DNA of 64,000 nucleotides from Shigella phage Moonfish, in sequence record PQ613263. The stretch is one strand, 5' to 3'. The position numbers were made by a program, and so were the translations under genes. This document shows, in pieces, positions 4,312 to 59,487 of this stretch. Every line of letters starts with the position of its first letter. Positions within the stretch are counted from its first letter, which is position 1. The notes beneath the pieces were generated by a model, which saw only the letters and a program-made list of their open reading frames with translations, was not told where the DNA came from and did no database searches.

Positions 4312-4312
4312 T

Positions 4313-9419: not shown

Positions 9420-9465
9420 TTACACTGGCTTACTGTAGAGTAGGCTTCCTATATACGATATAAGT

Positions 9466-12400
9466 TTGAACAGGAAACATGCTATGTCAACATTTGACCG
9501 TCTGGCAGGTTTCGCAGACAGCATCACTAATGCCAAGCAAGTCGATGTCTCTACTGCAACCTCTCAGAAGCAAGCTGCACAAGGGCAAAGCCCTTTCCAA
9601 TTAACCCCAGAGAATGCTTACAATCTCCAGACTGGACGTGTAGGTAATCTTGGAACTGGTGCATTCGAACCAGGTTCACTTCAGGCTGACTTCACTCAAG
9701 CCTCCCCATTAGAAATCATTAATAAGTACGGTAATGAGAAAGGTTTACAGATTCTTAATAGCCGAGCTAATGCTGCTGATGTTGTACGTCAGGACTTATC
9801 TAAACAGCGTACTAACGCAGAAGCATTTGGCGATACTCTTTCTGGTGTTGGTCTTGGTGTTGCTAATACCCTTGGGGGCATTGCTGCTCTTGGCACAGGT
9901 CTGGTCAATGATAATGCCGGGGCATCCATTGCTTCCGGGATGGATTGGCTGAATGAAGGTGTACGCAATCTCCAGTCTGATGCACTGAATGCTACCCGTA
10001 AAGTTGTTCAGAATCAGAACCAGATTTCTGCTCAAAAGAACCAGAAACTTTACGAGCAAGATATTAAGAATGGGGAGAACGATTTGGTTGCCTCCCTGTC
10101 TCGCATTGGTCGTGACGCTTTTGATTCTGTTGCTAATACACTTGATAATGGTATGGCTGCTACCGATGGACTGAGCGAAGGTGTTGGTTCCCTCTTTACT
10201 GCTGGTCCACTTATCCGTGGTGTGTCTGCATTAGGTAAAGTAATGGTTGGTGGTGATAAAGCTGTTAGGGGTATTACCTTAGCTGCTGAGTTGGGTTCAC
10301 GTCCTGCACAGGTTGCACTGTCTGCTGGTCGCGTTGCTGCACCTGCTATTGCAATCGGTGGCATGGAAGCAGGTGGTGCATACCAACAGACTGCATCTGA
10401 AATCATGAAGATGTCCCACCAAGAATTGGCAAGTAAGTCTCCTGTTTACCAACAACATATTGCTGATGGTTTACCTCCTGATGAAGCACGTCGTCAGACT
10501 GCATCTGAAACAGGTATCACTGCTGCTGGCTTAACTGCTCCAGTTGCTGCTGCTACTGGTCCACTGGTATCTCGCTTTGAACTTAACCCACTTAGAGTAG
10601 GTTCACTGGCTGGTGCTGGTTCTAATATGTTACGTGAGACTGTAGAAGAAGGTATTCAATCCGGCTTTGGTCAGTTCGCACAGAATACTGCAATCAAGGA
10701 AAATGTTGATGCATCCCGTGACACCCTCAAAGGGGTCGGTGAGCAAGCAGGGCTTGGTGCACTCTACGGCTTCGGTAGTGCTGGAGTTGCTCAAGCTCCT
10801 GGTGCAACTGTTAAAGCTGCTGGTGCTGCCACTGCTCCTGTTGTACGTACTACCCTGGCTGGTGCTTCTCTGGTTGGTAATGCATTAGCTAAAGCTGCTT
10901 CCCCTATTACTAACATTCTGGTTCAACGTGGTGAAGAAGTTGCTAAGCGTAATGAACAAGCATCCCCTGTAGCTGATGCTACGGTTAATGCTGCTGCACA
11001 AGAAGCTACTGCTCAGGCAGAACAAGCACAAGCGACTGTACAGGAAGCAGTAGATGCAATGGATATCTCTCCTGAGGAGAAGGCTGCTGCTACTCAGTAT
11101 GCTGCTGACTTAACTCAGGCAATGAACTTTGACCCTGTAGAATTGGAACAAGCTAACCCGGTAATTCGTGAAGCTGTTTCTGGTTCCACTAACCGTGTTG
11201 AAGCTATTCAGAAGATGGCTGACTTGGTTAATACAGCAGAAGACCCTAACGTTCAAATGGAAGCTGCTATCCAGATGTATGACAACATCATGTCTATGGA
11301 TAGCTTCATTAACCGTGACCCAGGTGCACTGGCTAATCTGGAACAGGGTTCACCTGCTGCTACAATCGTAGACCAGTTCTCTGGTCTGATGGCTAACGTA
11401 CAGAATACACCGAAGGTACTTCGTGCATTCCGTGCTATCCATTCCATGATTCAGGAACAGGCTGAAGCAGGTAAGCTGAAAGCTACTGAAGAAGCTAACC
11501 AAGCTCAAGCAAACAACATTGCCATGGCTGCTGACGTGTCTCCAGAAGTATTGGATGCAGATTCAGTGAACATGGTTCTGAAACATGCAAGTGAAGGTAA
11601 GATTACACTGGGGAATCGTCAACGTGCTGCCCTGCAATCTGCTGCTGCCTTGTTACAGGGTGCACGAGAGTTTGACGCTAAAGCAGAAGAACTAGGCTTA
11701 CGTCCTCAAGACATTGTTAGTAAACAAATTAAAACCGACGAGTCTCGTTCTAACGAAGGACAGTACTCTGCGTTGCAACATGCGAAACGCATTCGTTCTG
11801 CGTATAACTCTGGTAACTTCGATTTGGCTTACGCTTATCTGAGCGACTTTATGAAGTTCGCCCAGCACATGCAGAATAAGGTCGGAGCGTTGAATGAGCA
11901 TCTGATTTCTGGGAATGCGGATAAGAATAAGTCTGTTCATTATCAGGCTCTCTCGCCTTCCCGTGAATGGGTACGTAGTCGTACTGGCCTCGGTGTCAAT
12001 CCTTACGATACCAAGTCTGTTAAGTTTGCCCAGCAAGTAGGACTGGAGGCCAAAACCGTAGCTGATATTGCTAACGCACTTGCTACGGCTTACCCGGAGC
12101 TTAATGTTTCTCATGTGAAAGTTACCTCGTTGGATTCACGTCTGAACAAGCCAGCTGCCCAGGTAGTTAAAGAGTTCCGTCAAGGTGGTCTTGATGCCAC
12201 TCAGTCTCAACAGACCAATGAACCAGTGAATCAGGTTGATGAATCTCCTGCACCAGTGCAAGAGGACACTACTACTGTACAGCCTAAAGCTAAACCTGTG
12301 GTAGAAAATAAGACTGCTCCTACTAAGGAGACTAGCCCAAAAACAGAAGAAGTCTCTACTACCAAGTCTGAAACAGTAGAAGCTACCCTCACTAATGAGG

Positions 12401-15400
12401 ATACCATCCAGGAAGTAGCTGAAACCAAAACAGAAATGGAAACAGTGTTCCCCGTCTATAACAATGAAAAGACACCGAACCAGTTCCTGAAAGCATTTAC
12501 CCTACCAGAAGAACCTAAGTCTCGTACCATTGGTTCTGAGTCTCCGTTGACTGATGTTAAGCAAGCACTGTCTTCTGTTGCTCGCTTTGAAGCATTCACT
12601 CAAAAAGAAAATAACGCTCTCACAGGTGATGTGATTAAGCGTTATCAGGACTTAATGGACTTTGGTGAAACTCTGAAGACTACTTTGTCTGAACGACTGG
12701 CTAAGTTCCTTGCTAACAAAAATGTCGGTAAACGTTTTGCAGAAGGTACGGAAGCTAACCGTTGGGTAGGTGGCAAACTACTGAATATCGTTGAACAAGA
12801 TGGTGACACCTTTAAGTTCAATGACCAGTTGTTAGAGACTGCTGTGCTTGCTGGTCTGCAATGGCGACTAACTGCTACACAGAATGCTGCTGTTAAAGAC
12901 ATGAAAGACGTAGCTGCTATTACGGGTGTAGAAGCATCTCTGTTACCAGAAGGTATTCTGGCTGAGTTCGAGAATGCTCAGACTCTGGTTGAAGCTACTA
13001 ACTCACTGGCTCAGAAGATCGAATCCTACTGGGGTTTGAACCGTAACCCTAATGCACCACTGGGTTATACCAAGGGTATCCCAATGGCAATGGCTACAGA
13101 GATTCTGTCTTCCCTCATTGAGATGGGTGAAGTTAAAGAGTCTATGCTGGATGTGTCTGAGATTGACCCAGATTCCAATAAGACTGTCGGCCTGTATACC
13201 ATTGAGAAGCTGGATGACAATGATGCCATTAACAAATTCCCTACTGCTATTGAGGAAGCTGTCCTCTTAGAACCAGAAGAGAAAATGTATTTCGGTGACG
13301 ACATTCCTTCCGTGGCTCAAACTCAATTACGTAATCCTGCTGTTAAGAATACCCCGGAACAGAAAGCTGCTCTGAAAGTAGAACAGGCTACTGAGTTCCG
13401 TGTACACATGCCGATGGTTAACTTCTATGAAGCTATGGGCCGTGACAACATACTGGAATTGATGGGTGCTGGTTCTCTTAATCCTGAACTGTTGAACGTG
13501 AACACTGCTAAGTCACTGGAGGGTAAAAACCTGTCCGTGTCCATGGCATATGATTCCTTGTTTGGTGTAATCAATCAGATTAAGGAACAGGAGAATGGAC
13601 TAGATACACCTATCCACTATGGCTACAACATGACCCGTGTAGGTCGTATGCAGATGCTTGGTAAGAACAACCCACAGTCCAGCAAACTGGTACGTGAAGC
13701 AATCCTGCCAACCTTCTCTACTATTGACTTGAGTAATGAAAACAGCCAAACGTTCTCTGACTTCCAGTTAGGTCTGGCTCAGGCATTGGGTATCAAGGTT
13801 CATAATATGTCCCGTGAAGCTATGTCTGAAAAGCTGACCAAAGCTTTGGAAGGTAATCTGAAACCTGCTGTTGATATGATGGTTGAGTTTGATAAGTCTG
13901 GTCACTTACCTGCTGATGCAGTTGATATTCTGAAGACATCTCTGGGTGGCGATAAATCATTCGTAGCTCTCATGGCTCTTATGGAATATGCCCGTTACCT
14001 GAACAGTGATGACCGTGCCAACTTTAATACCCCTCTGTACGTTGAAGCCGATGGTGTAACCAACGGTCCGATTAACGCAATGGTATTAATGACTGGTGGT
14101 AAGTTCACTCCAGACTGGATTAAGAATACTGCTAAAGGTGGTTTGTTCTTCGGTAAAGCTGGTAAGACTATGAACGAACATCGTTCACAGGATGACAGTG
14201 TTGACTTGTATGAAGCATCCACCAATGGTCTGCAACAAGCATTGGGTGAATTGCGTAGTACTTACCGTAACAACGTTCCTGTTATGAGCCAGATGAACCA
14301 TCTCCAGAAGTTAATGGACCTGTTCATCAAAGACTTTAACTTGAATGAAGACGGTACTTTGGACCTGAAACGTGGTATCGCTAAAAACCCACTGACTATT
14401 ACCATCTATGGTTCTGGTGCACGTGGTATTGCTGGCAAGATGGTTAGTGCAATTACTGACACCATCTATGAACGCTTCAGTGACGTTCTGCAAGCACGTG
14501 CTGCTGACCCTAGCATTTCCCCAGCTATGGCGATGTTTGGTAAGGAGGCTGCGTCTGAGGCTGATGCTCAGGCTATGCTGGATACTTTCCTTACTTCTAT
14601 GGAAGCACTGACTGGTAATGTTCCAGTTATGCGTAAAGGCGAACTGTCTATTCAACAGGCAGAAGGTGCTCTGACTGGTAAGTTAGACCCTCAGAAGTTT
14701 ACTGTATCTGGTAATGCCTTGAAGAACCTACAAGAGAACATGCTTCACTTGTTCGTTGAACCAATGCGTACAGGTATCCGTAATACTGTTGGTGAAGGTC
14801 TGATGCACTCTACTGAGAACTTGCAGAAGGCTACTCAGATTCAGTCTCTGGTATTGCAGGATATGTTCCAACAAGCAGTACAGGCTAAACTGGCAGAAAA
14901 AGAAAATGACCCAACGTGGAAGAAGGGTGATTTCTTAACACAGAAAGAACTGAATGAAATTCAGGAATCATTATCTCCACTGGCTCCAATGATTGAGACT
15001 GGCGCACAGACTTTCTACATTGCTGGCAGTGAGAATACTGATGTTGCTAACCAAGTACTGGCTACCAACTTAGATGACCGTATGCGTGTGCCAATGAGCA
15101 TCTATGCCCCGTCACAAGCAGGTGTTGCTGGTATTCCATTTATGACCATCGGTACTGGTGATGGCATGATGATGCAGACCCTTTCTACTATGAAAGGTGC
15201 TCCGAAGAATACCCTGAAAATCTTTGATGGCATGAACATTGGTATCAATGACATCACTGATGCAAGCCGTAAAGCTAATGAGGCTGTATACACTTCCTGG
15301 CAGGGTAACCCTATCAAGAATGTTTATGACTCCTTCGCTAAGTTCATGAAGAATGTAGACTTCAGTAAACTGTCTGATGAAACCAAACAGGCTATCGCTA

Positions 15401-18400
15401 AGTCTGCTCTGGAATACGACCAGCGTGAAGGTGCTACTGATGACCTGTTACGTGTTGGTGCTGAACAGATTGAACGTAATCTGCGTAACATTGCTCTGGG
15501 TGTAGATATTCGCCATAAAGTAATGAACCAGGTACAGACTACTGTTGACCAGATGGCTGCTGTAGGTGCTCCTTATGTGAACAACGGTAAAATTTCTCTG
15601 GAAGGTCTGACTGTAGACCAGCAAGTAGCTAAGCTGAACGAACTGTTTGATGCTGAATTAATCAAGCGTCGTGATGCAGTACGTGCTGCTAAAGCAGAAC
15701 CAGTGAAAGAAGTACCGGCGATGGAGCAGGTTGGTCGTGTGCTGAAGTCTGGTGTACGTCTGCTGTCTAACACTGCTATTACTAAGCTGGCTAAAGAGAT
15801 GTCTCCTGAACAGCAAGCAGTATTGAAAGAAGTACAGAACTCCCTTGCTGCTAAAGACTACAAGGTTGTTTATGGTACTCCTGCTCAACTGGATGCTTAC
15901 GCTATTGAGAAGAACATTACTCGCCCAGCACCGGAAGATATTGAAGCTGCTGAAGCTGGTAATGCATACGGCTGGACTAACTTTGATGATAAGACCATCT
16001 ACTTAGTTACTCCTTCCTTAGAGACTCTGGTTCATGAATTGGTACATGCTTCTACTTTCGAATCTGTACTGGCTCACTATGAAGGTACTCCTAATGAAGC
16101 AGTCCAGAATATTGAAGACCTGATGAACCAGTTCCGTGCTCTGGATGTTAAGGATGAATCTCCGGCAGTACGTGAAGCATATGCTGATGCTCTCAATACC
16201 ATTAATGGTCACTTGTCTAATGGCTTTATTGAGCCAGCAATGGCTAAAGCTGCTGCACTTAATGAGTACATGGCATGGGGTTTAACCAACCGTGAACTGA
16301 TTGGTAAGCAGAAGAAAACCACTGCACTTAAGGCCATGGTTCAGTCTGTATATGAAGCAATTAAACGTCTGGTATTTGGGCGTAAGAAAGCTCCTGCTAA
16401 TGCAGATGATATGTTCTCTGGCTTACTGTTTAACTCCTCCGTAGTTATGCGTGGGCAAGCTCCTACTGCTGCTGTGGCTAAGGACACTACCTTGTTCCAT
16501 AGCAAAGCATATGGAGATAACACTCGTCTGGAAGAGTTAGGACAGACCTTCGATAAGCTGATTACTAACTACATTGGTTCAGAACCAGTACAGCAAGTAA
16601 TCCGTAAAGGTAAATTCTCTGATGCAGTAGTGAATGCAACAAAAGTAACTCGTGATGTTCAGGCTCATGGTTTCACTATGAATATGCAGGAACAGCGTCT
16701 CTTTACTAACATTGTTGCTGCACTGGCTACTGAAGCTGCTATTAGCCCAGCTGCTCTGGCTCGTGCACAGGAATACTATGCACACGTTACTAAGAACCTG
16801 ACCGTTGAAGCATTCATGGCTGACCCGGAAAGTACTAACCCTGCTGACCGTTACTACGCACAGCAGAAGTTCGATACCATCATGGGTGCTAACAATATTG
16901 AGTTTGATGCACAGGGTCGTTCTTCCTTACTGCCTACCTTCGTGGCTCTGGCAATGGTAAGTGAAGATGTACGTAACGTACTGGCTGGCATTCCTGTTAT
17001 GAAAGCAGATAAGCAATCTGGTAATACTGTTGATGCAATGCTGACTAACATTGGTACTGCTGCAATGGCTAGCCTGAATGCTCGTGTAGCAGGAGACACT
17101 AAAGCTACCAACGTGCAAGAAGGTATGGATGCACTGGCTCAGACAATCATGCAGACTAGCCTCAATGCACAGTCTTTCTACGATTCCGTTGCTACTCCTA
17201 GTGGTAATGCTATTGACCGTGCTAACCAGTATCTGGTGGACTCTATTGATGTACTGTCTACTCGTGCTTTAGATGGTGCACGTAATGTTGCAGCTAATAC
17301 CAAGAACCCATTGGTTAAAGGTGCTGCTCATGCTGCACAACTGGTAGCTGCTATTGCTACGGAGAAGAATGGTGCAATCGTAGCCGAAGGTGTTATGGCT
17401 GCAATGAACCAGGGTAAGGTATGGCAACCCTTCCATGACTTAGTTAATGACTTAACTGGTCGTACTAAGAGCAATGCTTCTGTATACGATTTAATTAAAG
17501 CAGTACGTGCACAGGTACAAGCTGACCGTCAGCAATTCCGTGAACATCTGCCTACCACTATCGCATCTAAGTTCAGCCGTAAGCTGACTAATGATGAGTG
17601 GAAAGCAATGCATACCGGCATGGGTAAAACTGATTTAGCTGTACTGCGTGACACTATGTCACTGGCTGAAATCCGTGACCTGTTGTCTGACCAGAAGATT
17701 GTTGACCGTGAAGTGAACAAGCTGGAAGCAGATTTGCAGAAACAAGCTGGGCGTAACTGGCCACTGATTAACCGTAAATCTAAGCAACTGGCTCAGTACA
17801 TGATTAACGGCACAGTTGGTAATAATCTGCTGCGTAATGCTACTGCAATCTCTCGTATGCTGGGCGAACGTCAGTCTGCACGTTCTACTGTAGATGTAGC
17901 TCAACTGGATAAACTTATTACCCTGTATGCACTGGAAGCAATGAGCAAAGCTGACCGTGAGCTGTTATCTTCCCTGGCTCAATCAGAAGTTGATGGAATG
18001 GATTTTGCTACTTCTTATCTGGTTGGACAGCGTAAAGATGAAATGGCTAAAGCTAAAACTGATAGCCGTGCAACATTGAACCAGTATAAAGGGCATATCC
18101 CTAGCGAGACTAAGCAGGGTGTTAACCTGATTGTTGCTGAAGATAGCCAGTTTGCTGATTTGATTGAGAAATCCTATGTACGTCTGGGTACTTATCAGGG
18201 TAGTTCTGCTAACCGTGGGCCAGCACGTAGCTACTACTTCGCACCAGTACAGGCACAGGCTCCATTCTCACAGGGCATCTTACAGAACGTTCGTAATACT
18301 GCTGGTGGTGTAGATCTTGGTACAGGCTTTACGATGGGTTCTATGGTAGCAGGTCGTATCACAGACAAGCCTTCAGTAGACCGTATCACTAAAGCTCTGG

Positions 18401-19836
18401 CCCGTGGTGAACGCGGTAATGAACCACTGCTGCCTGTATACGATGACAAAGGTAATGTAGTTGCATATGAGCAGTCTATAGACCCTAACATGCTGAAGCA
18501 CATTGAGGGTGAGAACCATCTTGCACGTGCAATCGGTGTATGGCGTGGTCGTCAGGTGGAAGAAGCTAAGGCTCAGCGTTTTAATGACATGCTGATAGAG
18601 AACCTGCATAGCATGTATGAGAACGACATTAAGATGTCTGCCTCCAATAAGTCCCAGTACGTGAACCTTCTTGGTTCTAAACTGGACCCAGTAACTGCTG
18701 ATGCTCTTAAGCTGATGAACAGTGAGACACGTCAGAAAGCAGAAAGCCTGTTTGGTAATGGTGAACTGTGGGTACGTCGTGACATGCTTAATGATGCTCT
18801 TGGTTATCGTGCAGCTTCTGTAGGTGATGCCTGGTCTGGTAATTCTCGTTGGTCCCCAGAAACGCTGGATACCTTCAAGAAAGCTATGTTAGGTGTGTTC
18901 GGCAATCGTGCTTATAAGTACACAATGGGAGGTGAGAACCTGGTACAGAACTTAGTTAAAGAAGCTAAGACCCTGATTGTAATTAAGTCAGTAGTCGTAC
19001 CTGCTGTTAACTTCTTGGCTAACCTTTACCAGATGGTTGCTCGTGGTGTACCAGTTAAGAACATTGCTAAGAGCATTCCACAGAAAACTGCTGAGATTAA
19101 CCAGTACCTGAAATCTCGTCTGCGTCAGGTAGATGCAGAAGCAGAATTACGTGCAGCTACCAACCCGAACCAGATTCGTAAGCTTAAGGCTGAGATTCAA
19201 TCCATCTCTGATAGCCATAAGCGTATGAGTATCTGGCCTCTGCTGGAAGCTGGTGAGTTCTCTTCAATTGCAGATGCTGGTATTGGGCGTGATGACATCC
19301 TGATTACCGAAGGTAAACTTCAGGAATATATGGATAAACTGGCTGATAAGTTGCCTAAGTCTGTACGTACTGCTGGGCGGTATGCACTCATCACTAAGGA
19401 TACTGCTCTTTTCCAGGGTATCCAGAAAACCGTTGAGTACTCTGACTTTATCGCTAAAGCAATCATCTATGATGAATTGACTCAGCGTAAAGGCAAGACT
19501 CGTGAAGAAGCACTTGGACGTGTAACTGAAGAGTTTGTTAACTATGACCGTCTGCCTGGTCGCTTCCGTGGATATATGGAAAGCGTTGGTTTAATGTGGT
19601 TCTACAACTTTAAGATTCGTTCTGCAAAAGTTGCAGTATCCATGATTCGTAATAACCCAGTACATGCAGCAATGGCTATGTTGGCTCCAGCTCCTACCAT
19701 GTTTGGTAACGTTGGTCTGCCTATTCAGGACAACGTATTTAGTATTGCTGCTAAGGGTGGGCTGGATTCTTCTTGGGGCTTTGGTCAGGGGCTGCGTGCT
19801 CACAACCTGAACCCTTGGTTGAACCTGGTAAACTAA
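9466..19836 (+). CDS. virion-encapsidated giant RNA polymerase (vRNAP, N4 gp50-like)
   Basis: Single uninterrupted 3456-aa ORF (10.4 kb) at the end of the virion gene module; a protein of this size in this position is the hallmark of N4-like phages. All antisense ORFs inside it are short. Confidence 0.9.
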   Translation: MNRKHAMSTFDRLAGFADSITNAKQVDVSTATSQKQAAQGQSPFQLTPENAYNLQTGRVGNLGTGAFEPGSLQADFTQASPLEIINKYGNEKGLQILNSRANAADVVRQDLSKQRTNAEAFGDTLSGVGLGVANTLGGIAALGTGLVNDNAGASIASGMDWLNEGVRNLQSDALNATRKVVQNQNQISAQKNQKLYEQDIKNGENDLVASLSRIGRDAFDSVANTLDNGMAATDGLSEGVGSLFTAGPLIRGVSALGKVMVGGDKAVRGITLAAELGSRPAQVALSAGRVAAPAIAIGGMEAGGAYQQTASEIMKMSHQELASKSPVYQQHIADGLPPDEARRQTASETGITAAGLTAPVAAATGPLVSRFELNPLRVGSLAGAGSNMLRETVEEGIQSGFGQFAQNTAIKENVDASRDTLKGVGEQAGLGALYGFGSAGVAQAPGATVKAAGAATAPVVRTTLAGASLVGNALAKAASPITNILVQRGEEVAKRNEQASPVADATVNAAAQEATAQAEQAQATVQEAVDAMDISPEEKAAATQYAADLTQAMNFDPVELEQANPVIREAVSGSTNRVEAIQKMADLVNTAEDPNVQMEAAIQMYDNIMSMDSFINRDPGALANLEQGSPAATIVDQFSGLMANVQNTPKVLRAFRAIHSMIQEQAEAGKLKATEEANQAQANNIAMAADVSPEVLDADSVNMVLKHASEGKITLGNRQRAALQSAAALLQGAREFDAKAEELGLRPQDIVSKQIKTDESRSNEGQYSALQHAKRIRSAYNSGNFDLAYAYLSDFMKFAQHMQNKVGALNEHLISGNADKNKSVHYQALSPSREWVRSRTGLGVNPYDTKSVKFAQQVGLEAKTVADIANALATAYPELNVSHVKVTSLDSRLNKPAAQVVKEFRQGGLDATQSQQTNEPVNQVDESPAPVQEDTTTVQPKAKPVVENKTAPTKETSPKTEEVSTTKSETVEATLTNEDTIQEVAETKTEMETVFPVYNNEKTPNQFLKAFTLPEEPKSRTIGSESPLTDVKQALSSVARFEAFTQKENNALTGDVIKRYQDLMDFGETLKTTLSERLAKFLANKNVGKRFAEGTEANRWVGGKLLNIVEQDGDTFKFNDQLLETAVLAGLQWRLTATQNAAVKDMKDVAAITGVEASLLPEGILAEFENAQTLVEATNSLAQKIESYWGLNRNPNAPLGYTKGIPMAMATEILSSLIEMGEVKESMLDVSEIDPDSNKTVGLYTIEKLDDNDAINKFPTAIEEAVLLEPEEKMYFGDDIPSVAQTQLRNPAVKNTPEQKAALKVEQATEFRVHMPMVNFYEAMGRDNILELMGAGSLNPELLNVNTAKSLEGKNLSVSMAYDSLFGVINQIKEQENGLDTPIHYGYNMTRVGRMQMLGKNNPQSSKLVREAILPTFSTIDLSNENSQTFSDFQLGLAQALGIKVHNMSREAMSEKLTKALEGNLKPAVDMMVEFDKSGHLPADAVDILKTSLGGDKSFVALMALMEYARYLNSDDRANFNTPLYVEADGVTNGPINAMVLMTGGKFTPDWIKNTAKGGLFFGKAGKTMNEHRSQDDSVDLYEASTNGLQQALGELRSTYRNNVPVMSQMNHLQKLMDLFIKDFNLNEDGTLDLKRGIAKNPLTITIYGSGARGIAGKMVSAITDTIYERFSDVLQARAADPSISPAMAMFGKEAASEADAQAMLDTFLTSMEALTGNVPVMRKGELSIQQAEGALTGKLDPQKFTVSGNALKNLQENMLHLFVEPMRTGIRNTVGEGLMHSTENLQKATQIQSLVLQDMFQQAVQAKLAEKENDPTWKKGDFLTQKELNEIQESLSPLAPMIETGAQTFYIAGSENTDVANQVLATNLDDRMRVPMSIYAPSQAGVAGIPFMTIGTGDGMMMQTLSTMKGAPKNTLKIFDGMNIGINDITDASRKANEAVYTSWQGNPIKNVYDSFAKFMKNVDFSKLSDETKQAIAKSALEYDQREGATDDLLRVGAEQIERNLRNIALGVDIRHKVMNQVQTTVDQMAAVGAPYVNNGKISLEGLTVDQQVAKLNELFDAELIKRRDAVRAAKAEPVKEVPAMEQVGRVLKSGVRLLSNTAITKLAKEMSPEQQAVLKEVQNSLAAKDYKVVYGTPAQLDAYAIEKNITRPAPEDIEAAEAGNAYGWTNFDDKTIYLVTPSLETLVHELVHASTFESVLAHYEGTPNEAVQNIEDLMNQFRALDVKDESPAVREAYADALNTINGHLSNGFIEPAMAKAAALNEYMAWGLTNRELIGKQKKTTALKAMVQSVYEAIKRLVFGRKKAPANADDMFSGLLFNSSVVMRGQAPTAAVAKDTTLFHSKAYGDNTRLEELGQTFDKLITNYIGSEPVQQVIRKGKFSDAVVNATKVTRDVQAHGFTMNMQEQRLFTNIVAALATEAAISPAALARAQEYYAHVTKNLTVEAFMADPESTNPADRYYAQQKFDTIMGANNIEFDAQGRSSLLPTFVALAMVSEDVRNVLAGIPVMKADKQSGNTVDAMLTNIGTAAMASLNARVAGDTKATNVQEGMDALAQTIMQTSLNAQSFYDSVATPSGNAIDRANQYLVDSIDVLSTRALDGARNVAANTKNPLVKGAAHAAQLVAAIATEKNGAIVAEGVMAAMNQGKVWQPFHDLVNDLTGRTKSNASVYDLIKAVRAQVQADRQQFREHLPTTIASKFSRKLTNDEWKAMHTGMGKTDLAVLRDTMSLAEIRDLLSDQKIVDREVNKLEADLQKQAGRNWPLINRKSKQLAQYMINGTVGNNLLRNATAISRMLGERQSARSTVDVAQLDKLITLYALEAMSKADRELLSSLAQSEVDGMDFATSYLVGQRKDEMAKAKTDSRATLNQYKGHIPSETKQGVNLIVAEDSQFADLIEKSYVRLGTYQGSSANRGPARSYYFAPVQAQAPFSQGILQNVRNTAGGVDLGTGFTMGSMVAGRITDKPSVDRITKALARGERGNEPLLPVYDDKGNVVAYEQSIDPNMLKHIEGENHLARAIGVWRGRQVEEAKAQRFNDMLIENLHSMYENDIKMSASNKSQYVNLLGSKLDPVTADALKLMNSETRQKAESLFGNGELWVRRDMLNDALGYRAASVGDAWSGNSRWSPETLDTFKKAMLGVFGNRAYKYTMGGENLVQNLVKEAKTLIVIKSVVVPAVNFLANLYQMVARGVPVKNIAKSIPQKTAEINQYLKSRLRQVDAEAELRAATNPNQIRKLKAEIQSISDSHKRMSIWPLLEAGEFSSIADAGIGRDDILITEGKLQEYMDKLADKLPKSVRTAGRYALITKDTALFQGIQKTVEYSDFIAKAIIYDELTQRKGKTREEALGRVTEEFVNYDRLPGRFRGYMESVGLMWFYNFKIRSAKVAVSMIRNNPVHAAMAMLAPAPTMFGNVGLPIQDNVFSIAAKGGLDSSWGFGQGLRAHNLNPWLNLVN

Positions 19837-21494: not shown

Positions 21495-21654
21495 TAGTAG
21501 CTTTTAATAGATAGCTGTATTTGAGCATTATAGTCTGCTCATACTCACACTCTTCTGTCGAAGAATATGTTTACAATACCTAGAGTGCCGGACTGTCTTA
21601 CCGGCATTGTCTTTAGAGTGCTAAGCAATCAGGACTATGTTCTCTATTAATGGG

Positions 21655-21728
21655 TGCCCACTACTGGATTTGAACCAGTGACTTTCCGATTATTAGTCGG
21701 TTGCTTTCCCCGTCTAAGCTAAGCGGGC
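21655..21728 (-). tRNA. tRNA gene (manual fold); anticodon loop CUAAUAA, anticodon AAU if numbering is canonical (Ile-type; A34 is unusual)
   Basis: Folded by hand on minus strand: acceptor GCCCGCT/AGTGGGC (one G.U), D-stem GCTT/AAGC with GG in D-loop, anticodon stem CCGA/UCGG, perfect T-arm ACTGG-TTCAAAT-CCAGT, discriminator A. Confidence 0.6.
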
Positions 21729-21929
21729 ATTGATAGGTGAGTCCTGCCAGGCTTTAACTGGCTCCTTCTTCGCAATCCTTACATACCCCTACATAATTAT
21801 TGCGTTAAGCTTTTTTGTTTAAGTTTAAGTGAAGGCGTTCTTGCTGACTCATAATTAGGTGAGGCGTTTGACGAATGACTAGTTCGTTACTACCTCGTTG
21901 TTTGCCATAAGTACCTGGCGACTTCAGGT

Positions 21930-30317: not shown

Positions 30318-31023
30318 CCTGATGTTCAGCATGGGTCGTTAATCCATGCCCGTCTTTCGACTGCTGCATATTCCTATGCAGAGCAGACTATATCATCACG
30401 CCAGATAGTAAGGCGTGCCATGCGCTTCCACCCACTTGAGTGTACTCTCTTTCGAGATAGTCGTTGCACCTTTCAATGCTGCGTGTAACCGAGCGTGGTC
30501 AGGAACACTTAGCAATACAAGATTATCAAAGTCGTTGTTATACGGATTCTCATCACAATGATGCACACACCAGCCTTTTGGTATTTCACTGATATTAAGT
30601 GCCTCACATACTACCACATGGTGAGCAAAAACGTGTTTACTGCCTTTGCGTGCAGTATACCAATCCGGTTTAAGTACCATTAAGTAACCTTTACTGTCGG
30701 ATACTAAACCTTTGTAGTTATGATGGTCTTTCCCAAATTTACCTAGCATGGGGTTATTTTCCCCCAGCTTGGAGCGTCGGTAAGACTTTGCATTTCTGTT
30801 TTGACGGTATTCTTTACTGTAGTTCTCCATAATATATTTAGAGACTTTTTTGTAATTAATACCTAAACGCTTTGATATTTCTGCTTGAGATAGGTCAGTA
30901 TTCTCGTACAGAGTCTTGATATCCATCATGTGCCTCCTAAGGCAGGTATGGTTGATTTGGCTCAGGATTGCCCGGTCTGGGTTTCCCCTGAATTCACATG
31001 GTTTAAATAGCCCAATTTATTTT
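30318..31023 (-). mobile_element. probable group I intron (706 nt) inside DNA polymerase gene, carrying an HNH homing endonuclease ORF
   Basis: Interrupts a conserved Pol A motif; 5' exon ends in U, intron ends in G; GGGCU 10 nt into the intron can pair with exon-end AGCCU (P1 with U.G); frame is preserved across the junction. Confidence 0.7.
30396..30929 (-). CDS. HNH homing endonuclease (intron-encoded)
   Basis: 177 aa; own RBS TAGGAGG; N-terminal HTH-like segment; C-terminal HNH motif CVHHCDENPYNNDFDNLVLLSVPDHARLH. Confidence 0.8.
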   Translation of the reverse strand: MMDIKTLYENTDLSQAEISKRLGINYKKVSKYIMENYSKEYRQNRNAKSYRRSKLGENNPMLGKFGKDHHNYKGLVSDSKGYLMVLKPDWYTARKGSKHVFAHHVVVCEALNISEIPKGWCVHHCDENPYNNDFDNLVLLSVPDHARLHAALKGATTISKESTLKWVEAHGTPYYLA

Positions 31024-47861: not shown

Positions 47862-48988
47862 CTGCCAGAGGCTGTCATCCAGCTTACCCGCAGAGAACTC
47901 TTGTCCCAGTACCTGAGATAGGATGAAGCCCAGCAAGTCACTCTTAGCAATGTCAGATAGAATCTGATTGTACTGACGACGTAGGTCATTACCATAGTTA
48001 GGATGACAACGAAAACCATTAGTTAAACGAGTCGTTAGCTCGCCCTTACCTTCCATGATTAACATGAAAGCCATATGTAGCATCTGCTTGTTTACGAGCA
48101 AGCATTGCCTCCTCAAGTGTGTCGTACGTACCCAGACCGATCTGTTTGCGATTGACTGTGATGTGTGCCTGAAATCTACCAGAAGGCAGTATTCTCACAC
48201 CGTTCACTTTGCTTGAAGTATTACTAGATAAACTCATATTCATCTGGTTCTGTCTGCTGGTTACATTTCTCAAATTAGACCAACGATTGTCGTTTCTAGT
48301 ATGATTGATGTGGTCCACCTGGTTAGGTGTTTCCCCAGTTTCCATTATCCAGATTATTCGATGTAGTAAGTACTCTTTGCGGCCCAGGCTAACGGATAGA
48401 TACCCTTCTTTGTGAGGATACCCCACAATTGTTCCGGCTAACCCACTGGCAGAGTCATAACGATGAGTCACTAGCCCACTATCCCTGTCATACCTTAAAA
48501 CCTTCTGCAAAGATTCTTGGGTAATATTACCCAAGTTTATTATTAGGTTTTTACAGGTAGAGCATAGATGACCTATTGGACTCTTTCTAGCATCATAGAA
48601 GTTACAAACAAACTCATTAGAGCATTGCTTGCAACTACAGATAGCTGTGTACTTACCAGTTTTACGTAATATTTGAGAGTTATCTAACATATGGATTCCT
48701 TAGTAATTTTGCATACAATTTCAGATTGTATCCTAACCAAGGAAGTAAGTCTCCAATTTTCACTGGAGTATCGGACTATATCATCACCCACTAATCAGTG
48801 GGGCAAGGCGCTTGGGTGGTCACTTGACTCACCTACTCTACTCACATACGAAATGCTTTCGATAGTCTCTGAACCTTCCCTCATAGAGGGCTTGGCTGCT
48901 GATTGGCATATCCATAGGACTTAGCTTTCCAGCAATTCACCTTGTTTTCGACACGGATTACTCCGTGAAGGATCATTTATGTTTAATC
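47862..48988 (-). mobile_element. probable group I intron (~1.1 kb) in RNAP II large-subunit gene, carrying an HNH-AP2 endonuclease ORF
   Basis: Upstream ORF stops right after ...VLTVHD, 9-10 codons short of a T7-like C-terminus that is encoded 1.1 kb downstream in frame-compatible position; splice after caU with intron ending caG satisfies U/G group I rules. Confidence 0.55.
48046..48690 (-). CDS. HNH endonuclease with AP2 DNA-binding domain (intron-encoded)
   Basis: 214 aa; own AAGGAA RBS; HNH_3-like GYLSVSL...HRIIWIMETGETPNQVDHINHTRNDNRWSNLR; C-terminal AP2-like GVRILPSGRFQAHI...GTYDTLEEA. Confidence 0.8.
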   Translation of the reverse strand: MLDNSQILRKTGKYTAICSCKQCSNEFVCNFYDARKSPIGHLCSTCKNLIINLGNITQESLQKVLRYDRDSGLVTHRYDSASGLAGTIVGYPHKEGYLSVSLGRKEYLLHRIIWIMETGETPNQVDHINHTRNDNRWSNLRNVTSRQNQMNMSLSSNTSSKVNGVRILPSGRFQAHITVNRKQIGLGTYDTLEEAMLARKQADATYGFHVNHGR

Positions 48989-55232: not shown

Positions 55233-55553
55233 CTATTTAGTCAGGATGTCGATTACTTTTGAATATTCTGCGTTATAGATACGAGCGTTCTCTGAATCTT
55301 TGCAGAATTCTTCGATACTTTTCTTACGCATAGTCTCGTTCATAGCTGTTTCTTCAGCTAATTTGTTTACGAATGTATGCATTTCTAATTTAGTACGGAT
55401 GGCTTGTTTCTCTGCCATAGTAGATACATATGAATTAAGCATACCTACTGCTTTAGTAGCTGTGCCGAATGTATCTGCAACAGTAGTAGCAGCTGAGTTA
55501 ACAGTACCCAGTAAAGTTCCTGCGGTCATACGTACAGTAGCGGTAGTAGTCAT
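55233..55553 (-). CDS. hypothetical early protein
   Basis: 106-aa ORF downstream of the hairpin at 55596-55610. Confidence 0.5.
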   Translation of the reverse strand: MTTTATVRMTAGTLLGTVNSAATTVADTFGTATKAVGMLNSYVSTMAEKQAIRTKLEMHTFVNKLAEETAMNETMRKKSIEEFCKDSENARIYNAEYSKVIDILTK

Positions 55554-55595
55554 GATGATAGCTCCAATAGTTGATGATAGGACGACATGTCCATA

Positions 55596-55610
55596 ACATG
55601 CGGAGCATGT
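55596..55610 (-). promoter_or_regulatory. GGA-triloop hairpin, candidate vRNAP-type early promoter
   Basis: ACATGC-GGA-GCATGT (6-bp stem, 3-nt loop, same C-GGA-G core) ~45 nt upstream of the 55553 start. Confidence 0.45.
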
Positions 55611-55711
55611 GTAACGTGTAAGGTGGGGTAGGGTAGTGGCTACAGGGTCAACATACCGGGGGGGATGGTTGAGTGTAAGGGTGTAGCCCCAGCCACACCA
55701 CTAAAGCTGAA

Positions 55712-55820
55712 CATAGCTATGATGAAATCCCTAAGAAAAAATATGAGAAGTACTTTCCCTATGCGACTACTGCTAGACATAGCTATCAACATTTTGACAT
55801 GCAAAAATATCATAGCTATC
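55712..55820. repeat. three copies of palindrome CATAGCTAT(G/C) phased 66 and 33 bp apart
   Basis: Copies at 55712-55721, 55778-55787, 55811-55820 in a 267-bp intergenic region upstream of the 55596 hairpin. Confidence 0.5.
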
Positions 55821-56147
55821 TCACTTATAAGCAGCTAAATAGGAGGGAGCATACACCAGGAATATGGATTGAAGGGTATCGCTCGATGTGAAGGTAAGGG
55901 TGTACTTATCAGTGTTCACATGCCAGGGGGAATGTACATATGTAGACCAGGGTAATTCCTTTCCTGGTTCCTGAAGTTTTACAATAACTTTCCTGCCTAG
56001 TATTAGAGCCAGACCTTTCACTTCATGAAGGGTTTGCTCATCTGGTACTAGGATAATAGGAGTGAGTCTACCTGGTTCGAGGTCTTGTAAGGTTGTATGG
56101 GCAGTGGGATTGGGTCCACCAGCATAACCTATCTTAGTGAGTTTCAT
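55821..56147 (-). CDS. small early protein, member of paralogous family (ILVPDEQ..HE..GL motif)
   Basis: 108 aa; core IILVPDEQTLHEVKGLALILG shared with 56848, 57456, 57736, 58336 ORFs. Confidence 0.5.
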   Translation of the reverse strand: MKLTKIGYAGGPNPTAHTTLQDLEPGRLTPIILVPDEQTLHEVKGLALILGRKVIVKLQEPGKELPWSTYVHSPWHVNTDKYTLTFTSSDTLQSIFLVYAPSYLAAYK

Positions 56148-56150
56148 TTG

Positions 56151-56528
56151 TTATACCCCGTAATCTATCTTAACCAGTCTACCTTTGTAGTAACCAAAGT
56201 TCTTAGGGAAGGCATCATACTCAAAGAACTCTTTACCGAGTGGCTGTGGTTCATTGGCTGCATCTAAGTATAGCTTCTCTAACTCTACCCAGAATAAACC
56301 AGTATGTTTCACAGGCTTAGCCCTGTGCATGATTAGAACCAGACCAAATCTATTAGAGTACTTGATTGGGCATAGGAACTTATTGTTGTAATCCTTCCAC
56401 TGTCCTTCAGTTAGATTGCTTAACATACCTTGTACGAAGTGTTTCCATGTAGAGAGGATAGGGAACTTAATTGCGTAATGACGAGTGAGTATTACCCATC
56501 TGGTTCCACCGGAGCGTATTAGTTTCAT
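56151..56528 (-). CDS. hypothetical early protein with kinase-like Gly-loop/AIK and C-terminal DYG motifs (speculative)
   Basis: 125 aa; SGGTRWVILTRHYAIKFP ... HRAKP ... KIDYGV. Confidence 0.45.
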   Translation of the reverse strand: MKLIRSGGTRWVILTRHYAIKFPILSTWKHFVQGMLSNLTEGQWKDYNNKFLCPIKYSNRFGLVLIMHRAKPVKHTGLFWVELEKLYLDAANEPQPLGKEFFEYDAFPKNFGYYKGRLVKIDYGV

Positions 56529-56851
56529 TTGGTAGCCTTGAATTGTGGTAACTGATTAAGAAGACTATCCATGTAGTAGCAGTATGCCTCGGAGGATTCG
56601 TCATTAATTGGAAGACCAATGAATCCAAAGGTATAAATGCAGAAGTGATTAAGCTCATGAACCAAGGTTATCTTACTATCATCAAATATACCCATAAGCA
56701 CAAAGTTGTCCGCTATGTAGCAGGTTTTTCCTTTAAGGGTTGTTTCCTTTTCTGGTTCAGTACCACGGTATGCTTTATGCTTCTTAGAGAATGTAGCCCA
56801 GTCATATACTACTTCTAACTGTACTGGATAGGGGGATGTGTTTAGTTTCAT
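56525..56851 (-). CDS. small HExxH-motif protein (mini-zincin candidate)
   Basis: 108 aa; VHELNHF followed by acidic ESSEAY. Confidence 0.45.
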   Translation of the reverse strand: MKLNTSPYPVQLEVVYDWATFSKKHKAYRGTEPEKETTLKGKTCYIADNFVLMGIFDDSKITLVHELNHFCIYTFGFIGLPINDESSEAYCYYMDSLLNQLPQFKATK

Positions 56852-57132
56852 TGTCTTTCCTTATAGATTAGGGTGTTATCCTCGAAGGATAGAATGTACT
56901 TGTCTGTATTGAGATACCAAGGACTGAAGCTCCCCTGCCAGGACATAGGTGCACTTGGTTCAAGTAGATGTACTTCTGCTTTCTTATTGTATAAGAAAAG
57001 TAATCCTTGTAGTTCATACAAGGACTGTTCGTCTGGAACCAGGATAAGTATATCAGCATCCATGCGAGCTACTTCTTTATGGTGGGAGCAAACATTTCCG
57101 AATTCTCCTGAATAATTTTTATAGATAACCAT
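56848..57132 (-). CDS. small early protein, paralogous family member
   Basis: 94 aa; ILILVPDEQSLYELQGLLFLY ... SPWYLNTDKYILSF parallels the 55821 ORF. Confidence 0.5.
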   Translation of the reverse strand: MVIYKNYSGEFGNVCSHHKEVARMDADILILVPDEQSLYELQGLLFLYNKKAEVHLLEPSAPMSWQGSFSPWYLNTDKYILSFEDNTLIYKERQ

Positions 57133-57452
57133 TAGCAGCTCCCGTCGCTAGATAAATATGAGGTAGAAGGATAGAGGGTAATGAGTCTACCAGTAAGAGT
57201 AGTAGCTACCATAGGTTCGCTGGAGGAGTAGATGTATACCCTCTTACCTTCTGGTATCTCAATAGAGGTATCTATCTTAACAAAGTTAATAGGTACACCT
57301 AACATTAGACAAGAACCAATGAACTCATCTGCTTCCTCACTGGGTTCATAATAGACAGTGACACCATCCAGTTTACCTTCGAAGAAATCCCTCTTAGTTA
57401 GACCAGGCCATCTAATGTTAGAACTGTATGCAGCTAATGTGTAGAAGTGCAT
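57132..57452 (-). CDS. hypothetical early protein (possibly distant member of same family)
   Basis: 106-aa ORF. Confidence 0.45.
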   Translation of the reverse strand: MHFYTLAAYSSNIRWPGLTKRDFFEGKLDGVTVYYEPSEEADEFIGSCLMLGVPINFVKIDTSIEIPEGKRVYIYSSSEPMVATTLTGRLITLYPSTSYLSSDGSC

Positions 57453-57455
57453 AGC

Positions 57456-57770
57456 TTACTTCCTTACATAGTAATAACGGTATTCGTCATTCTCATAACG
57501 ACTAACCCATTGGTAGTCATCAGACACCAACATATATGGGATAGGGTCACCTGCACTGTAGTCGGTATAGACAGAAGGAGGAACAATGCATACAACCTTA
57601 CGGGCATTACCTGCTAAGAAGAGTTGACCCCTTACTTCGTGATAATCTTCTAAAGTAGGAACCAGGATTACTTGGTGAGGATTACTGTTCATGACTTCTT
57701 CTAAAGTGAAGTCAGTTGTGTACAGTAACTTCTCTTTAGTAAAACTGAGGACGGTCATTATGAATTTCAT
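57456..57770 (-). CDS. small early protein, paralogous family member
   Basis: 104 aa; VILVPTLEDYHEVRGQLFLAG. Confidence 0.5.
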   Translation of the reverse strand: MKFIMTVLSFTKEKLLYTTDFTLEEVMNSNPHQVILVPTLEDYHEVRGQLFLAGNARKVVCIVPPSVYTDYSAGDPIPYMLVSDDYQWVSRYENDEYRYYYVRK

Positions 57771-58134
57771 GATGGATTCTCCTTCCTTTGGGAAGAGGTC
57801 TGAAGTAAATGGAAAGTGTTTTATTAAATACGTTATGGTCAGCTATCAATTCCCAACCATCAATCTTATAGAAGCGTACACCGGGAAAGAATGTAGTGAA
57901 GTCACTATACTTAGTGAGGTCATACACCCTTGGTTCAGTAAGTATCTCGGTATTGAGTTGCAGGTTGGATAAGAAAAAAGAACCAATAACTTCATGGGAC
58001 TCTTCACAATCAGGTAAGAAGACTTGCTGCCATGGAGCAATGAACTTACTTACTGCTTCTGGTTCTCCTAAGAGATAAGGCTCCTGCCCTCGTAGTACTC
58101 CGGTAATATCAAAATCAAAACAGTAGATGCTCAT
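57736..58134 (-). CDS. small early protein, paralogous family member
   Basis: 132 aa; VFLPDCEESHEVIGSFFLSN; GGAGG RBS. Confidence 0.5.
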   Translation of the reverse strand: MSIYCFDFDITGVLRGQEPYLLGEPEAVSKFIAPWQQVFLPDCEESHEVIGSFFLSNLQLNTEILTEPRVYDLTKYSDFTTFFPGVRFYKIDGWELIADHNVFNKTLSIYFRPLPKGRRIHHEIHNDRPQFY

Positions 58135-58160
58135 AATTGCATACCTCCAGAAAAAGAAAT

Positions 58161-58186
58161 GGGGTAGAGCCTCTCGACTCTACCCC
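58161..58186 (-). terminator. hairpin plus T-run (terminator/attenuator) in early region
   Basis: GGGGTAGAG...CTCTACCCC 9-bp stem followed on the minus strand by ATTTCTTTTT, immediately before the RBS of the 58134 gene. Confidence 0.5.
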
Positions 58187-58242
58187 TTACCGTTTTCAAT
58201 CACGGGTCAGTTCATCCCCCTAGGTACTTATGTACCATTAGA

Positions 58243-58255
58243 CCTACGGAGTAGG
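58243..58255 (-). promoter_or_regulatory. GGA-triloop hairpin (fourth copy of the C-GGA-G hairpin class)
   Basis: CCTAC-GGA-GTAGG 5-bp stem, 3-nt loop. Confidence 0.35.
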
Positions 58256-58335
58256 AAAGGAGCCGGGGAACCCTGACTGTAGAAGTTATTAACTCTTTAC
58301 GAGTACCGCCACTGTCTACTAGGCGGTATGACTAA

Positions 58336-58626
58336 TCACATCATCTCCGTCATCCGAACGCTATCTTTGCTTCGTTTGATGGAGACACTATGAGGTAATT
58401 TTGTGAAGAACACAATAGCAGAAATAGCTTTTTCTAAAGAGTAACTTTTTGCAGGTTCTTTGACGGTAACCCCTGAAACGTTTTCAAGGAGGAGTATACC
58501 GGACAACTCGTGGTATTCCTGCTCGGTCGTGGTAATGATGATATCTCCTGGCAGGAACCCAGCCTTCTTGTGGTCAAGTTCTACATATCCGTCAAAGGTA
58601 TCATCGCTTTTGGTAAATAGTCTCAA
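58336..58626 (-). CDS. small early protein, paralogous family member (TTG start)
   Basis: 96 aa; IIITTTEQEYHELSGILLLEN; AGGAG RBS 9 nt upstream of a TTG start. Confidence 0.45.
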   Translation of the reverse strand: MRLFTKSDDTFDGYVELDHKKAGFLPGDIIITTTEQEYHELSGILLLENVSGVTVKEPAKSYSLEKAISAIVFFTKLPHSVSIKRSKDSVRMTEMM

Positions 58627-58797
58627 GGTAGTACTCCTTGGGGAATAAGGTCATCGGAACATTACATACTATTTAGTATCATGAACTTTTTCTATATCAT
58701 GACTAAAGTGTAACTGTATGGTATGGTTTCTTCAAGGGGTATCTCACCCCAAGAAAAGAATCTTCGTTAATAGACATAACTTTGTAGAGAGATAAGT

Positions 58798-59487
58798 ATG
58801 AGTGAGCTAACTAAGCAGCAGATCATTAATGCCTTACCTGCTAACTTCAAAAACAGTGTGACCCAGGAGTTAGTAGATACAATTAACAACATAACCCAAG
58901 ACCAACTGGTTGCTGAGTCCTTCCGTGAAAACTTCATCTCTTACTCTGGTGTTATGAAAGAGGGTAAGTTTAAGACACAGGACTACATGAATGCAGTTCA
59001 GTATGTGACTTACAAGCACATGGGCTACTCAAATAAAGAAGCCTACTTTAAAACATTCCCCAACCGACAAGCAGAACTTGTAGCACGGGGAACCAGTGAG
59101 AAAGATATTAGTGCTTATGTATCTGCTTATCACAGGGGTAAGTTAGTTAACCTCATCATGGAACAAAGTTTGGTTCCAGTGTGGATTGTGAACCAGGACA
59201 ATTATCAGAAGGCAATCAATGTTCAGGTTGAACTGATGACTACAGCAGCAAGTGAGAAAGTAAGATGTGATGCAGCTAACTCTATCCTTACTCACTTAGC
59301 TAAACCAAAAGACCAGGTGACTAATATCAACCTGGACTTGAGGGAGAACTCTGGGTTGACTGACCTCAAGGCAACACTTGCTGCATTAGCTGAACAACAA
59401 ATTAATGCAATCAATAGTGGTGTACCTACTAAAGAGATTGCTGGTTCTAAACTAGTACGTGCAGATGAGGACATTACAGATGTCTGA
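58798..59487 (+). CDS. first gene of late operon; terminase small-subunit candidate (positional)
   Basis: 229-aa ORF immediately upstream of and overlapping the terminase large-subunit gene. Confidence 0.4.
   Translation: MSELTKQQIINALPANFKNSVTQELVDTINNITQDQLVAESFRENFISYSGVMKEGKFKTQDYMNAVQYVTYKHMGYSNKEAYFKTFPNRQAELVARGTSEKDISAYVSAYHRGKLVNLIMEQSLVPVWIVNQDNYQKAINVQVELMTTAASEKVRCDAANSILTHLAKPKDQVTNINLDLRENSGLTDLKATLAALAEQQINAINSGVPTKEIAGSKLVRADEDITDV

Follow-up and report, generated by a model that had tools for sequence, protein, structure and literature searches.

The window analysed here, a stretch of 64,000 nucleotides (nt) from Shigella phage Moonfish (sequence record PQ613263), contains at positions 55821-58626 an array of small minus-strand genes that constitutes a right-end accessory operon, in which six of the eight genes (H, G, F, E, D and A, in the order of transcription; Table 1) belong to one old paralogue family. 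The phage is a Gamaleyavirus, i.e. a G7C-like, N4-like podophage (Schitoviridae, Enquatrovirinae), and the window is a reverse-complemented and circularly permuted segment of its genome; when positions 55500-59000 were compared by megablast, 60 phage records were found at 80-90% identity, including G7C relatives, PhAPEC5/7, Bp4, phiG17 and Bas96. The identity, homology and position of the array, as described in the following, are held with high confidence. For its role we propose a mechanism in which read-through of a structured RNA leader would control a set of host-directed binding proteins, a reading to which we assign a probability of about 0.45.

An earlier note on this DNA, made from the sequence alone, had described at least five consecutive open reading frames (ORFs) sharing a core of the form I(I/L)LVP(D/T)E..HE..G..L and, in two cases, a second block. 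The five listed there (A, D, F, G and H) are all present and lie on the minus strand, and both blocks read as described, with SPWHVNTDKYTLTF in A and SPWYLNTDKYILSF in D. Pairwise alignment with BLASTP connected A and D at 46% identity (59 bits), while the remaining pairs scored 22-28 bits. When alignments of orthologues were compared profile to profile with hhalign, the relationships became considerably clearer (A-D 6e-20, D-H 1.4e-7, D-F 2.8e-6, A-H 1.8e-5 and F-G 2.1e-5), and no unrelated neighbour (C, gp1, gp2 and others) reached an E-value below 0.05. Hidden Markov models (HMMs) were further constructed from four window members at a time and scanned on the 372 six-frame ORFs of the window. 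In every such run the left-out fifth member was the best non-training match (D 1.8e-13, A 1.7e-10, F 1.9e-8, H 1.7e-5 and G 4.5e-3), with the next-best ORF at E ≥ 0.026, and the similarity is thus well beyond chance. With the family HMM, A, D, F, G and H span 1e-22 to 1e-25 (H 5.3e-22, G 2.6e-24, F 1.1e-25, A 2.2e-24).

Gene E, which was not among the five ORFs of the earlier note, is by sequence comparison a divergent sixth member, because its subfamily aligned with the family in hhalign at E 1.4e-4 across the same core (YEPSEEADEFIGSCLMLG compared to LVPDEQTLHEVKGLALILG), because an intermediate sequence connects the two, and because the predicted cores are in register. The intermediate is an ORF of the metagenomic phage L068 (L068_6965-7276), matched by the E-subfamily HMM at 8.6e-6 and itself a family member at 8.5e-12. 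The AlphaFold2 (AF2) model of E, which is of low confidence (predicted local distance difference test score, pLDDT, of 61.5), has only the beta-alpha-beta core of the fold in common with A. No relation to the family was found by hhalign for the two remaining genes of the operon, C and B.

Compared to annotated relatives, H, G, F and E are gp70, gp71, gp71.1 and gp71.2 of G7C, respectively, and H and G are the counterparts of N4 gp70 and gp71, with relatives annotated as 'similar to N4 gp70' or 'similar to N4 gp71'. A seed HMM from the five window ORFs alone matched N4 gp70 at 4.7e-8 and N4 gp71 at 2.2e-5. The PHROGs database divides the family into five groups (7213, 9160, 11661, 12099 and 16338), and H was assigned to phrog_7213, G to phrog_9160, F to phrog_11661 with a weak match to phrog_16338, and D to phrog_16338, the function being unassigned in each case. 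Proteins of the gp70/gp71 type are labelled 'hypothetical' throughout the databases; Pfam covers N4 gp1, gp2 and gp8, yet contains no family for gp70 or gp71, and profile searches with family members gave no match in Pfam, NCBIfam or the sequences of the PDB. A search of 5.8 billion proteins returned 328 clusters at 90% identity, all unnamed or 'hypothetical' and typically located on contigs of about 70 kb, and an exhaustive HMMER scan of 1.84 billion representatives yielded only 29 clusters (50% identity) at E ≤ 1e-3, which sort into gp70-like, gp71-like, gp71.1-like and A/D-like subfamilies.

Members of the family were seen only in Schitoviridae, as proteins of about 95-135 amino acids (aa) encoded in the interval that separates the right terminal repeat from the terminase genes. 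Their number ranges from two in N4 to seven in L068 (six HMM-positive and an E-like seventh), with four in G7C, five HMM-positive in KP8, five on contig L067 and two in L069; a related-locus query with a single protein gave 9 loci. In the Achromobacter phage JWAlpha, which belongs to another subfamily, two genes are HMM-positive and the strand-Pro-helix-Gly motif is found in 5/5 right-end genes. The array of the window phage, with six members and two unrelated inserts, is the largest among the isolates examined. No paper on gp70/gp71-type genes was found in the literature on G7C, Gamaleyavirus, N4 transcriptomics, HIDEN-SEQ, transposon screens and CRISPRi-ART, nor was any prior description found of these proteins as one superfamily; the KP8 paper mentions a variable group of short ORFs with function unassigned (PMC6950046). 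The genes themselves were already known, as database hypotheticals, and what is added here is their unification into one family, the unmatched fold, the lineage-wide synteny and the RNA leader.

The AF2 model of A, based on a 69-sequence alignment, had a pLDDT of 85.9 and a predicted template-modelling (TM) score of 0.78, and its chain passes through three strands and a helix, then five more strands, and ends in a short C-terminal helix. A Foldseek search of the PDB with this model revealed no relative (best E 0.16, TM 0.26). The earlier note had not recognised the motif, and this agrees with the uniformly negative outcome for Pfam, NCBIfam, PDB sequences and PDB folds. In BFVD, all matches of the model were to uncharacterised proteins from N4-like phages, each phage contributing several (PhAPEC7/5, phiG17, EC1-UPM, OLB145, KP8 with four, Achromobacter phages JWAlpha, JWDelta and the Axy phages, and Pseudomonas phage Zuri with four). 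These matches, with TM scores of 0.5-0.96 and probabilities of 0.95-1.0, comprise A, D, F and gp71 types as well as the KP8, Achromobacter and Zuri proteins, and on these models the family is predicted to have a common alpha/beta fold of about 100 aa, in which a helix stands between three N-terminal strands and about five later ones. A hydrophobic strand, a proline, an acidic helix cap, a helix glycine and an E-P turn are invariant across the family.

Comparison of gene order with G7C, N4, PhAPEC7, KP8 and JWAlpha identifies the array as the cluster found at the right end of these genomes (N4 gp70-72; G7C gp70-71.2). The terminase genes, which are transcribed divergently from it, lie on one side and the right terminal repeat on the other, and transcription of the array runs towards the terminus. 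A fixed gene order of terL, terS, a divergent gp70-like gene, a gap of about 200-250 nt with a terminator, a gp71-like gene, 0-5 further genes of about 100 aa, and the terminal repeat with gp1 was found in N4, G7C, PhAPEC7, Bas96, KP8, JWAlpha, L068 and L069. In G7C, gp70 to gp71.2 stop just short of the 1160-bp right terminal repeat and the left end opens with gp1 and gp2; the right ends of N4 and KP8 are arranged in the same way. When aligned to the window, the records of G7C, N4 and KP8 all have their left terminus at position ~55695, 125 nt downstream of A, from which we infer that the physical left genome end, and with it the start of the terminal repeat, lies past the whole array. Within the operon, H has an AAGGAG ribosome-binding site 7 nt before its TTG start, and genes G to A follow one another closely, either overlapping (by 35, 1, 4 and 4 nt) or separated by 3 nt; the 35-nt overlap of G and F recurs in G7C.

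The gap of about 200 nt between H and G contains a conserved non-coding leader of 185 nt, which shares 98-99% nt identity with G7C and PhAPEC7; the flanking genes reach only 75% (H) and 83-86% (G), with a synonymous divergence (dS) of 0.6-1.1. The leader is predicted to be strongly folded (minimum free energy z = -3.6), and an alignment of five sequences supported 43 pairs in eight helices with 97.7% of cells paired. Compensatory changes were found at eight pairs, versus 1.8 in shuffles (0/500) and 0-1 in slid controls. The layout of gp70, leader with terminator, and gp71 is also found in N4, KP8, JWAlpha, L068 and L069, where the position of the terminator is conserved between lineages and its sequence differs. 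In Rfam the leader matched nothing beyond a chance-level mir-279 hit (E 0.81) on the opposite strand. It may serve to control read-through or be a stable small RNA.

The divergent region of 171 nt between terS and gp70 (58627-58797) is 95-98% identical to G7C and PhAPEC7 and harbors a candidate sigma-70-type promoter for H. A sequence of the form TTG(A/C)AG or TTGATA, 17 nt, TA(C/G)ACT occurs at the same place in G7C, N4, KP8, L015 and JWAlpha, and a GGGGTGAGATACCCC hairpin adjoins the -35-like hexamer. Together with the 5' untranslated region of gp70, this control region is conserved at the DNA level among N4, KP8 and JWAlpha (e.g. TTAGACTTTAG...TTAGTCTCCTTnCAAnTAGTAAGnCAGAG...CCTATTGCC), far above the conservation of the proteins; the regions compared were window 58627-58797, L003 4895-5056, L017 3564-3738 and L018 7800-7941.

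The paralogues themselves diverge rapidly. Using orthologues from 13 related loci, the ratios of nonsynonymous to synonymous substitution (dN/dS) were 0.23-0.43 for H, 0.11-0.23 for G, 0.14-0.27 for F, 0.25-0.42 for E, 0.44-0.52 for D and 0.09-0.24 for A, about ten times higher than for the terminase subunits of the same Gamaleyavirus genomes (0.007-0.03). Between H and the gp70 of other Gamaleyaviruses the aa identity is 57-66%, compared to 98-99% for the terminase of the phages concerned. All complete Gamaleyavirus loci examined retain H, G, F and E, whereas D, C, B and A have been gained or lost among close relatives; D, for instance, is found in Bas96, L007 and L013 and is missing from G7C and PhAPEC7. 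A search for direct DNA repeats inside the array gave short, chance-level matches only, and the duplications are therefore old. The C-terminus of A (...PSYLAAYK*) resembles those of G7C gp71.2 (...PSSYLTAYK*) and N4 gp71 (...IPAYK*), and the last ~125 nt before the terminal repeat (window 55696-55830; L004 7690-7760) are conserved between the window and G7C, encoding the SYL(A/T)AYK* of whichever array gene is last (A here, gp71.2 in G7C). The tail of A on G7C gp71.2 and the shared DNA before the repeat are as expected from inter-copy recombination deleting the intervening genes, which suggests recombination between paralogues and a cis-acting site at the repeat boundary. The description of the array in the earlier note as an expanded, diversifying family is borne out by this variation in copy number and content and by dN/dS values that are high compared to core genes.

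Based on this anatomy, we propose that gp70 would be transcribed from the conserved, weak sigma-70-like promoter and not from a hairpin promoter of the virion RNA polymerase, and that the transcript would then enter the structured leader and meet the strong terminator at its end. Genes G to A may form one translationally coupled unit made only by terminator read-through, since their tight packing leaves no room for a promoter of their own, and the leader would in this way set the output level of the paralogue set. As entry of the genome into the cell finishes with the right end, the products of the array would not be immediate-early. We give this model of expression, with its sigma-70-like promoter, leader and read-through, an even chance of being correct. 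The paralogues would each have their own host macromolecule to bind and modulate, in host interaction or counter-defence, and the set would diversify by duplication, rapid divergence and inter-copy recombination that adds or deletes members. Since no catalytic residue is conserved and the proteins are not DNA mimics, a non-enzymatic role is suggested, and the view of the family as binding modules directed at host targets is put forward tentatively, at somewhat less than even odds. Fast divergence and copy-number variation favour host targets. A role in host takeover or anti-defence is plausible as a hypothesis. An extended version, in which the family is a Schitoviridae-specific and structurally new class of small effectors, its dosage set by a novel leader/terminator conserved from coliphages to Achromobacter phages and its host-targeting binders (e.g. 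for counter-defence) deployed by conditional read-through after the last DNA enters, seems unlikely to hold.

A number of observations weigh against this proposal. On the side of expression, the candidate promoter agrees with the consensus at 8/12 positions, under the scan threshold, and is a weak match. An alternative motif, ATGATATAG, overlaps the gp70 promoter region and recurs ahead of two middle-region operons, in view of which the array may be transcribed by RNA polymerase II (RNAPII). This motif occurs exactly three times (0.72 expected), at 30388-30396, 48776-48784 and 58692-58700 (-), each time intergenic and upstream of a minus-strand operon, and it may be a middle (RNAPII) promoter motif. 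Two of the sites directly follow a GC-rich hairpin and the gp70 site does not, and the motif is absent from N4; with this inconsistent context and its absence from N4, it was rejected as a common promoter motif over the minus-strand intergenic regions, for which no convincing candidate emerged. The leader could equally be a stable small RNA derived from the 3' untranslated region, or a site acting at the DNA level. On the side of function, a target in the phage machinery is favoured by the universality of the family, its restriction to one lineage and its fixed synteny. Anti-defence genes are usually common to unrelated phages, and the gp70/gp71 family is not; its restriction to Schitoviridae and its fixed synteny speak somewhat against a freely exchanged anti-defence gene. 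With their DNA entering late, the array genes are also poor candidates for the restriction-modification resistance of N4 and Gamaleyavirus.

The rival account that fares best is a lineage-specific housekeeping or regulatory role in which the family acts on the N4-type machinery and not on the host. The proteins might, for instance, work with the terminase in packaging or in processing the genome ends, protect the ends of the linear, terminally redundant genome or help to replicate it, assist the final stage of DNA entry, or take part in switching among the three RNA polymerases. The universal presence of gp70, leader and gp71 and the absence of the fold from other phage groups fit housekeeping at least as well as host interaction: the three were present in every Schitoviridae lineage examined, including the Achromobacter phage, always adjoin the terminase genes and the genome terminus, and belong to a family and fold found nowhere else. 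The control region and leader are also far more conserved than the proteins, suggesting a core regulatory circuit, and the last array gene overlaps the conserved segment beside the terminal repeat. On the other hand, gp70 is the fastest-diverging component (57-66% aa identity, dN/dS up to 0.43), which would be unusual for a partner of the core machinery, and a copy number of 2 to 7 with gain and loss between close relatives does not fit well either. Overall, we consider a housekeeping role somewhat unlikely, at slightly lower odds than host-directed binding.

The earlier note had instead viewed the array as an early arsenal for host takeover or anti-defence, which would imply immediate transcription by the injected virion RNA polymerase. 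This reading draws on the small, diverged tandem paralogues of variable content, which resemble takeover and anti-defence islands, on the orientation of the array, which is that of the early genes and runs on into them across the concatemer junction, and on the reported restriction-modification resistance of N4 and Gamaleyavirus, the means of which is unexplained (PMC11990801). Early promoters of this type are hairpins with a 5-7 bp stem and a 3-nt loop that reads GGA or GAA in the template strand, and the genes they serve lie in the left-end region, the first part of the genome to enter. Canonical hairpins (xxxxGC-TCC-GCxxxx) were found by scanning only at 55610-55596, 54779-54765, 54523-54509 and 51465-51451; all four have a 6-bp stem ending in GC and a GGA loop on the template strand, and their counterparts are P1 and P2 of N4 and the annotated early promoters of KP8. 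Both the left terminus at ~55695 and all four hairpins are located downstream of the array, and vRNAP (virion RNA polymerase) promoters have been argued to be confined to the first-entering left end (PMC4496689). The sole TCC-loop hairpin within the array, at 58255-58243, was rejected as a promoter of this kind, as its loop is not conserved (CTA in L022, TACT in L029) and its stem covaries; with its compensatory changes it behaves as an RNA stem. Furthermore, the left-end early regions of G7C, N4 and KP8 gave no match to the family HMM. Of the earlier interpretation, the tandem array of diverged paralogues from an uncharacterised family stands while the label 'early' has to be given up, and an immediate-early arsenal is improbable.

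That the proteins are small metal-dependent enzymes, acting through the D/E...HE...E residues of the core, is very improbable. In an alignment dominated by Gamaleyavirus sequences, H41, E42 and E60 (A numbering) hardly vary, and in the confident A model they lie at a strand-helix junction. However, the HE dyad, which the earlier note had included in the shared core, is present in some window members and is not a family-wide feature: it is replaced by YE in D, by DY, AY, YE, NR or HQ in most gp70-type proteins, and is missing from the JWAlpha members, and no match to any enzyme family or fold was found. A catalytic HE dyad was accordingly discarded for its variability across the family. DNA mimicry of the Ocr/ArdA anti-restriction type was rejected as well, as the family proteins are mildly acidic to neutral (isoelectric point, pI, of 4.7-8.0; net charge of -6 to +1) and have no Pfam, NCBIfam or PDB match. 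A chance motif or non-coding ORFs, for which nothing speaks beyond the shortness of the ORFs, can be dismissed in view of the leave-one-out E-values (down to 1.8e-13), the orthologues intact in dozens of genomes with dN/dS < 1, and the confident AF2 model of A.

The features of the array and its immediate surroundings are collected in Table 1. The two inserts are without a recognised function. C belongs to phrog_1365 (function unassigned), is carried by many relatives including KP8, and contains a metalloprotease-like HELNH (HExxH) motif, with no match in Pfam, NCBIfam or the PDB. B belongs to phrog_4301 (function unassigned) and matched DUF3440 below threshold; it had no PDB match and no orthologue in the other Gamaleyavirus loci fetched. 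By eye, its motifs YAIKFP ... DAFPKN ... KIDYG resemble a minimal protein-kinase-like fold. On the gene map of the window, the late genes and a virion RNA polymerase of 3456 aa occupy the plus strand at 250-19836, followed by the minus-strand gene block at 20311-58626 and the plus-strand terminase genes from 58798. A single tRNA gene, for tRNA-Ile with the unusual anticodon AAT, was observed at 21651-21729 (-), within an ORF-free gap of 684 nt in the minus-strand block.

Table 1. Coordinates of the array genes, their control elements and boundary markers in the window.
Feature	Position	Strand	Description
Candidate sigma-70-type promoter for H	58735-58707	-	TTGAAG (58735-58730), 17-nt spacer, TACACT (58712-58707)
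H	58336-58626	-	gp70 orthologue, 96 aa, TTG start; first gene of the array, followed by leader and terminator
Structured non-coding leader	58151-58335	-	five hairpin stems, one closing a two-hairpin junction; intrinsic terminator at its end
Strong intrinsic terminator	stem 58186-58161, T-run to ~58151	-	17 nt ahead of the G start codon
G	57736-58134	-	gp71 orthologue, 132 aa, family member
F	57456-57770	-	G7C gp71.1 orthologue, 104 aa, family member; 35-nt overlap with G
E	57132-57452	-	G7C gp71.2 orthologue, 106 aa, divergent sixth family member
D	56848-57132	-	94-aa family member, closest paralogue of A
C	56525-56851	-	108 aa, unrelated to the family, inside the operon
B	56151-56528	-	125 aa, basic (pI 9.7), unrelated to the family, inside the operon
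A	55821-56147	-	108-aa family member, last gene of the array
Terminal repeat start (inferred left genome end)	~55695	-	alignment of G7C, N4 and KP8 left termini
First virion RNA polymerase hairpin promoter, ACATGC-TCC-GCATGT	55610-55596	-	hairpin scan; upstream of gp1
gp1	55233-55553		boundary marker outside the array, downstream of the first hairpin promoter

N4-like phages form a large family with therapeutic use and an unusual three-polymerase programme. The cluster of short ORFs at their right end consists mostly of one fast-evolving superfamily with a fold unmatched in the PDB, and a group of hypothetical proteins thereby becomes a defined module of one candidate promoter, one RNA element and 2-7 putative paralogous binders. 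Should the proteins target host defences or host machinery, this would help to explain the reported restriction resistance and the host range of N4-like phages; should they instead target the phage machinery, it would bear on how the terminally redundant N4 genomes are finished and packaged.

Compared to known systems, the leader is reminiscent of the HK022 put RNA (cited in PMC4496689) and of riboswitch and attenuator leaders, in that a multi-hairpin RNA including a terminator is placed between a promoter-proximal gene and the rest of an operon; it differs from these in having no sequence or Rfam relationship to them, and its control of read-through is putative. The closest counterparts of the array are N4 gp70/gp71 and G7C gp70-gp71.2, which are its orthologues and paralogues and share its right-end position, orientation and leader/terminator layout, while the window phage has six members and two inserts where N4 has two members and G7C four. 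Takeover and anti-defence islands, such as clustered anti-CRISPR/anti-defence loci or the host-takeover module of the B. subtilis phage SPO1, are usually composed of several unrelated families. The array differs from them in consisting mostly of copies of one fold, confined to one phage family with fixed synteny, and in its location at the last-entering end, without the early promoter type. It nevertheless has in common with such islands a tandem arrangement of small genes, rapid divergence, presence/absence variation and a position near a genome end.

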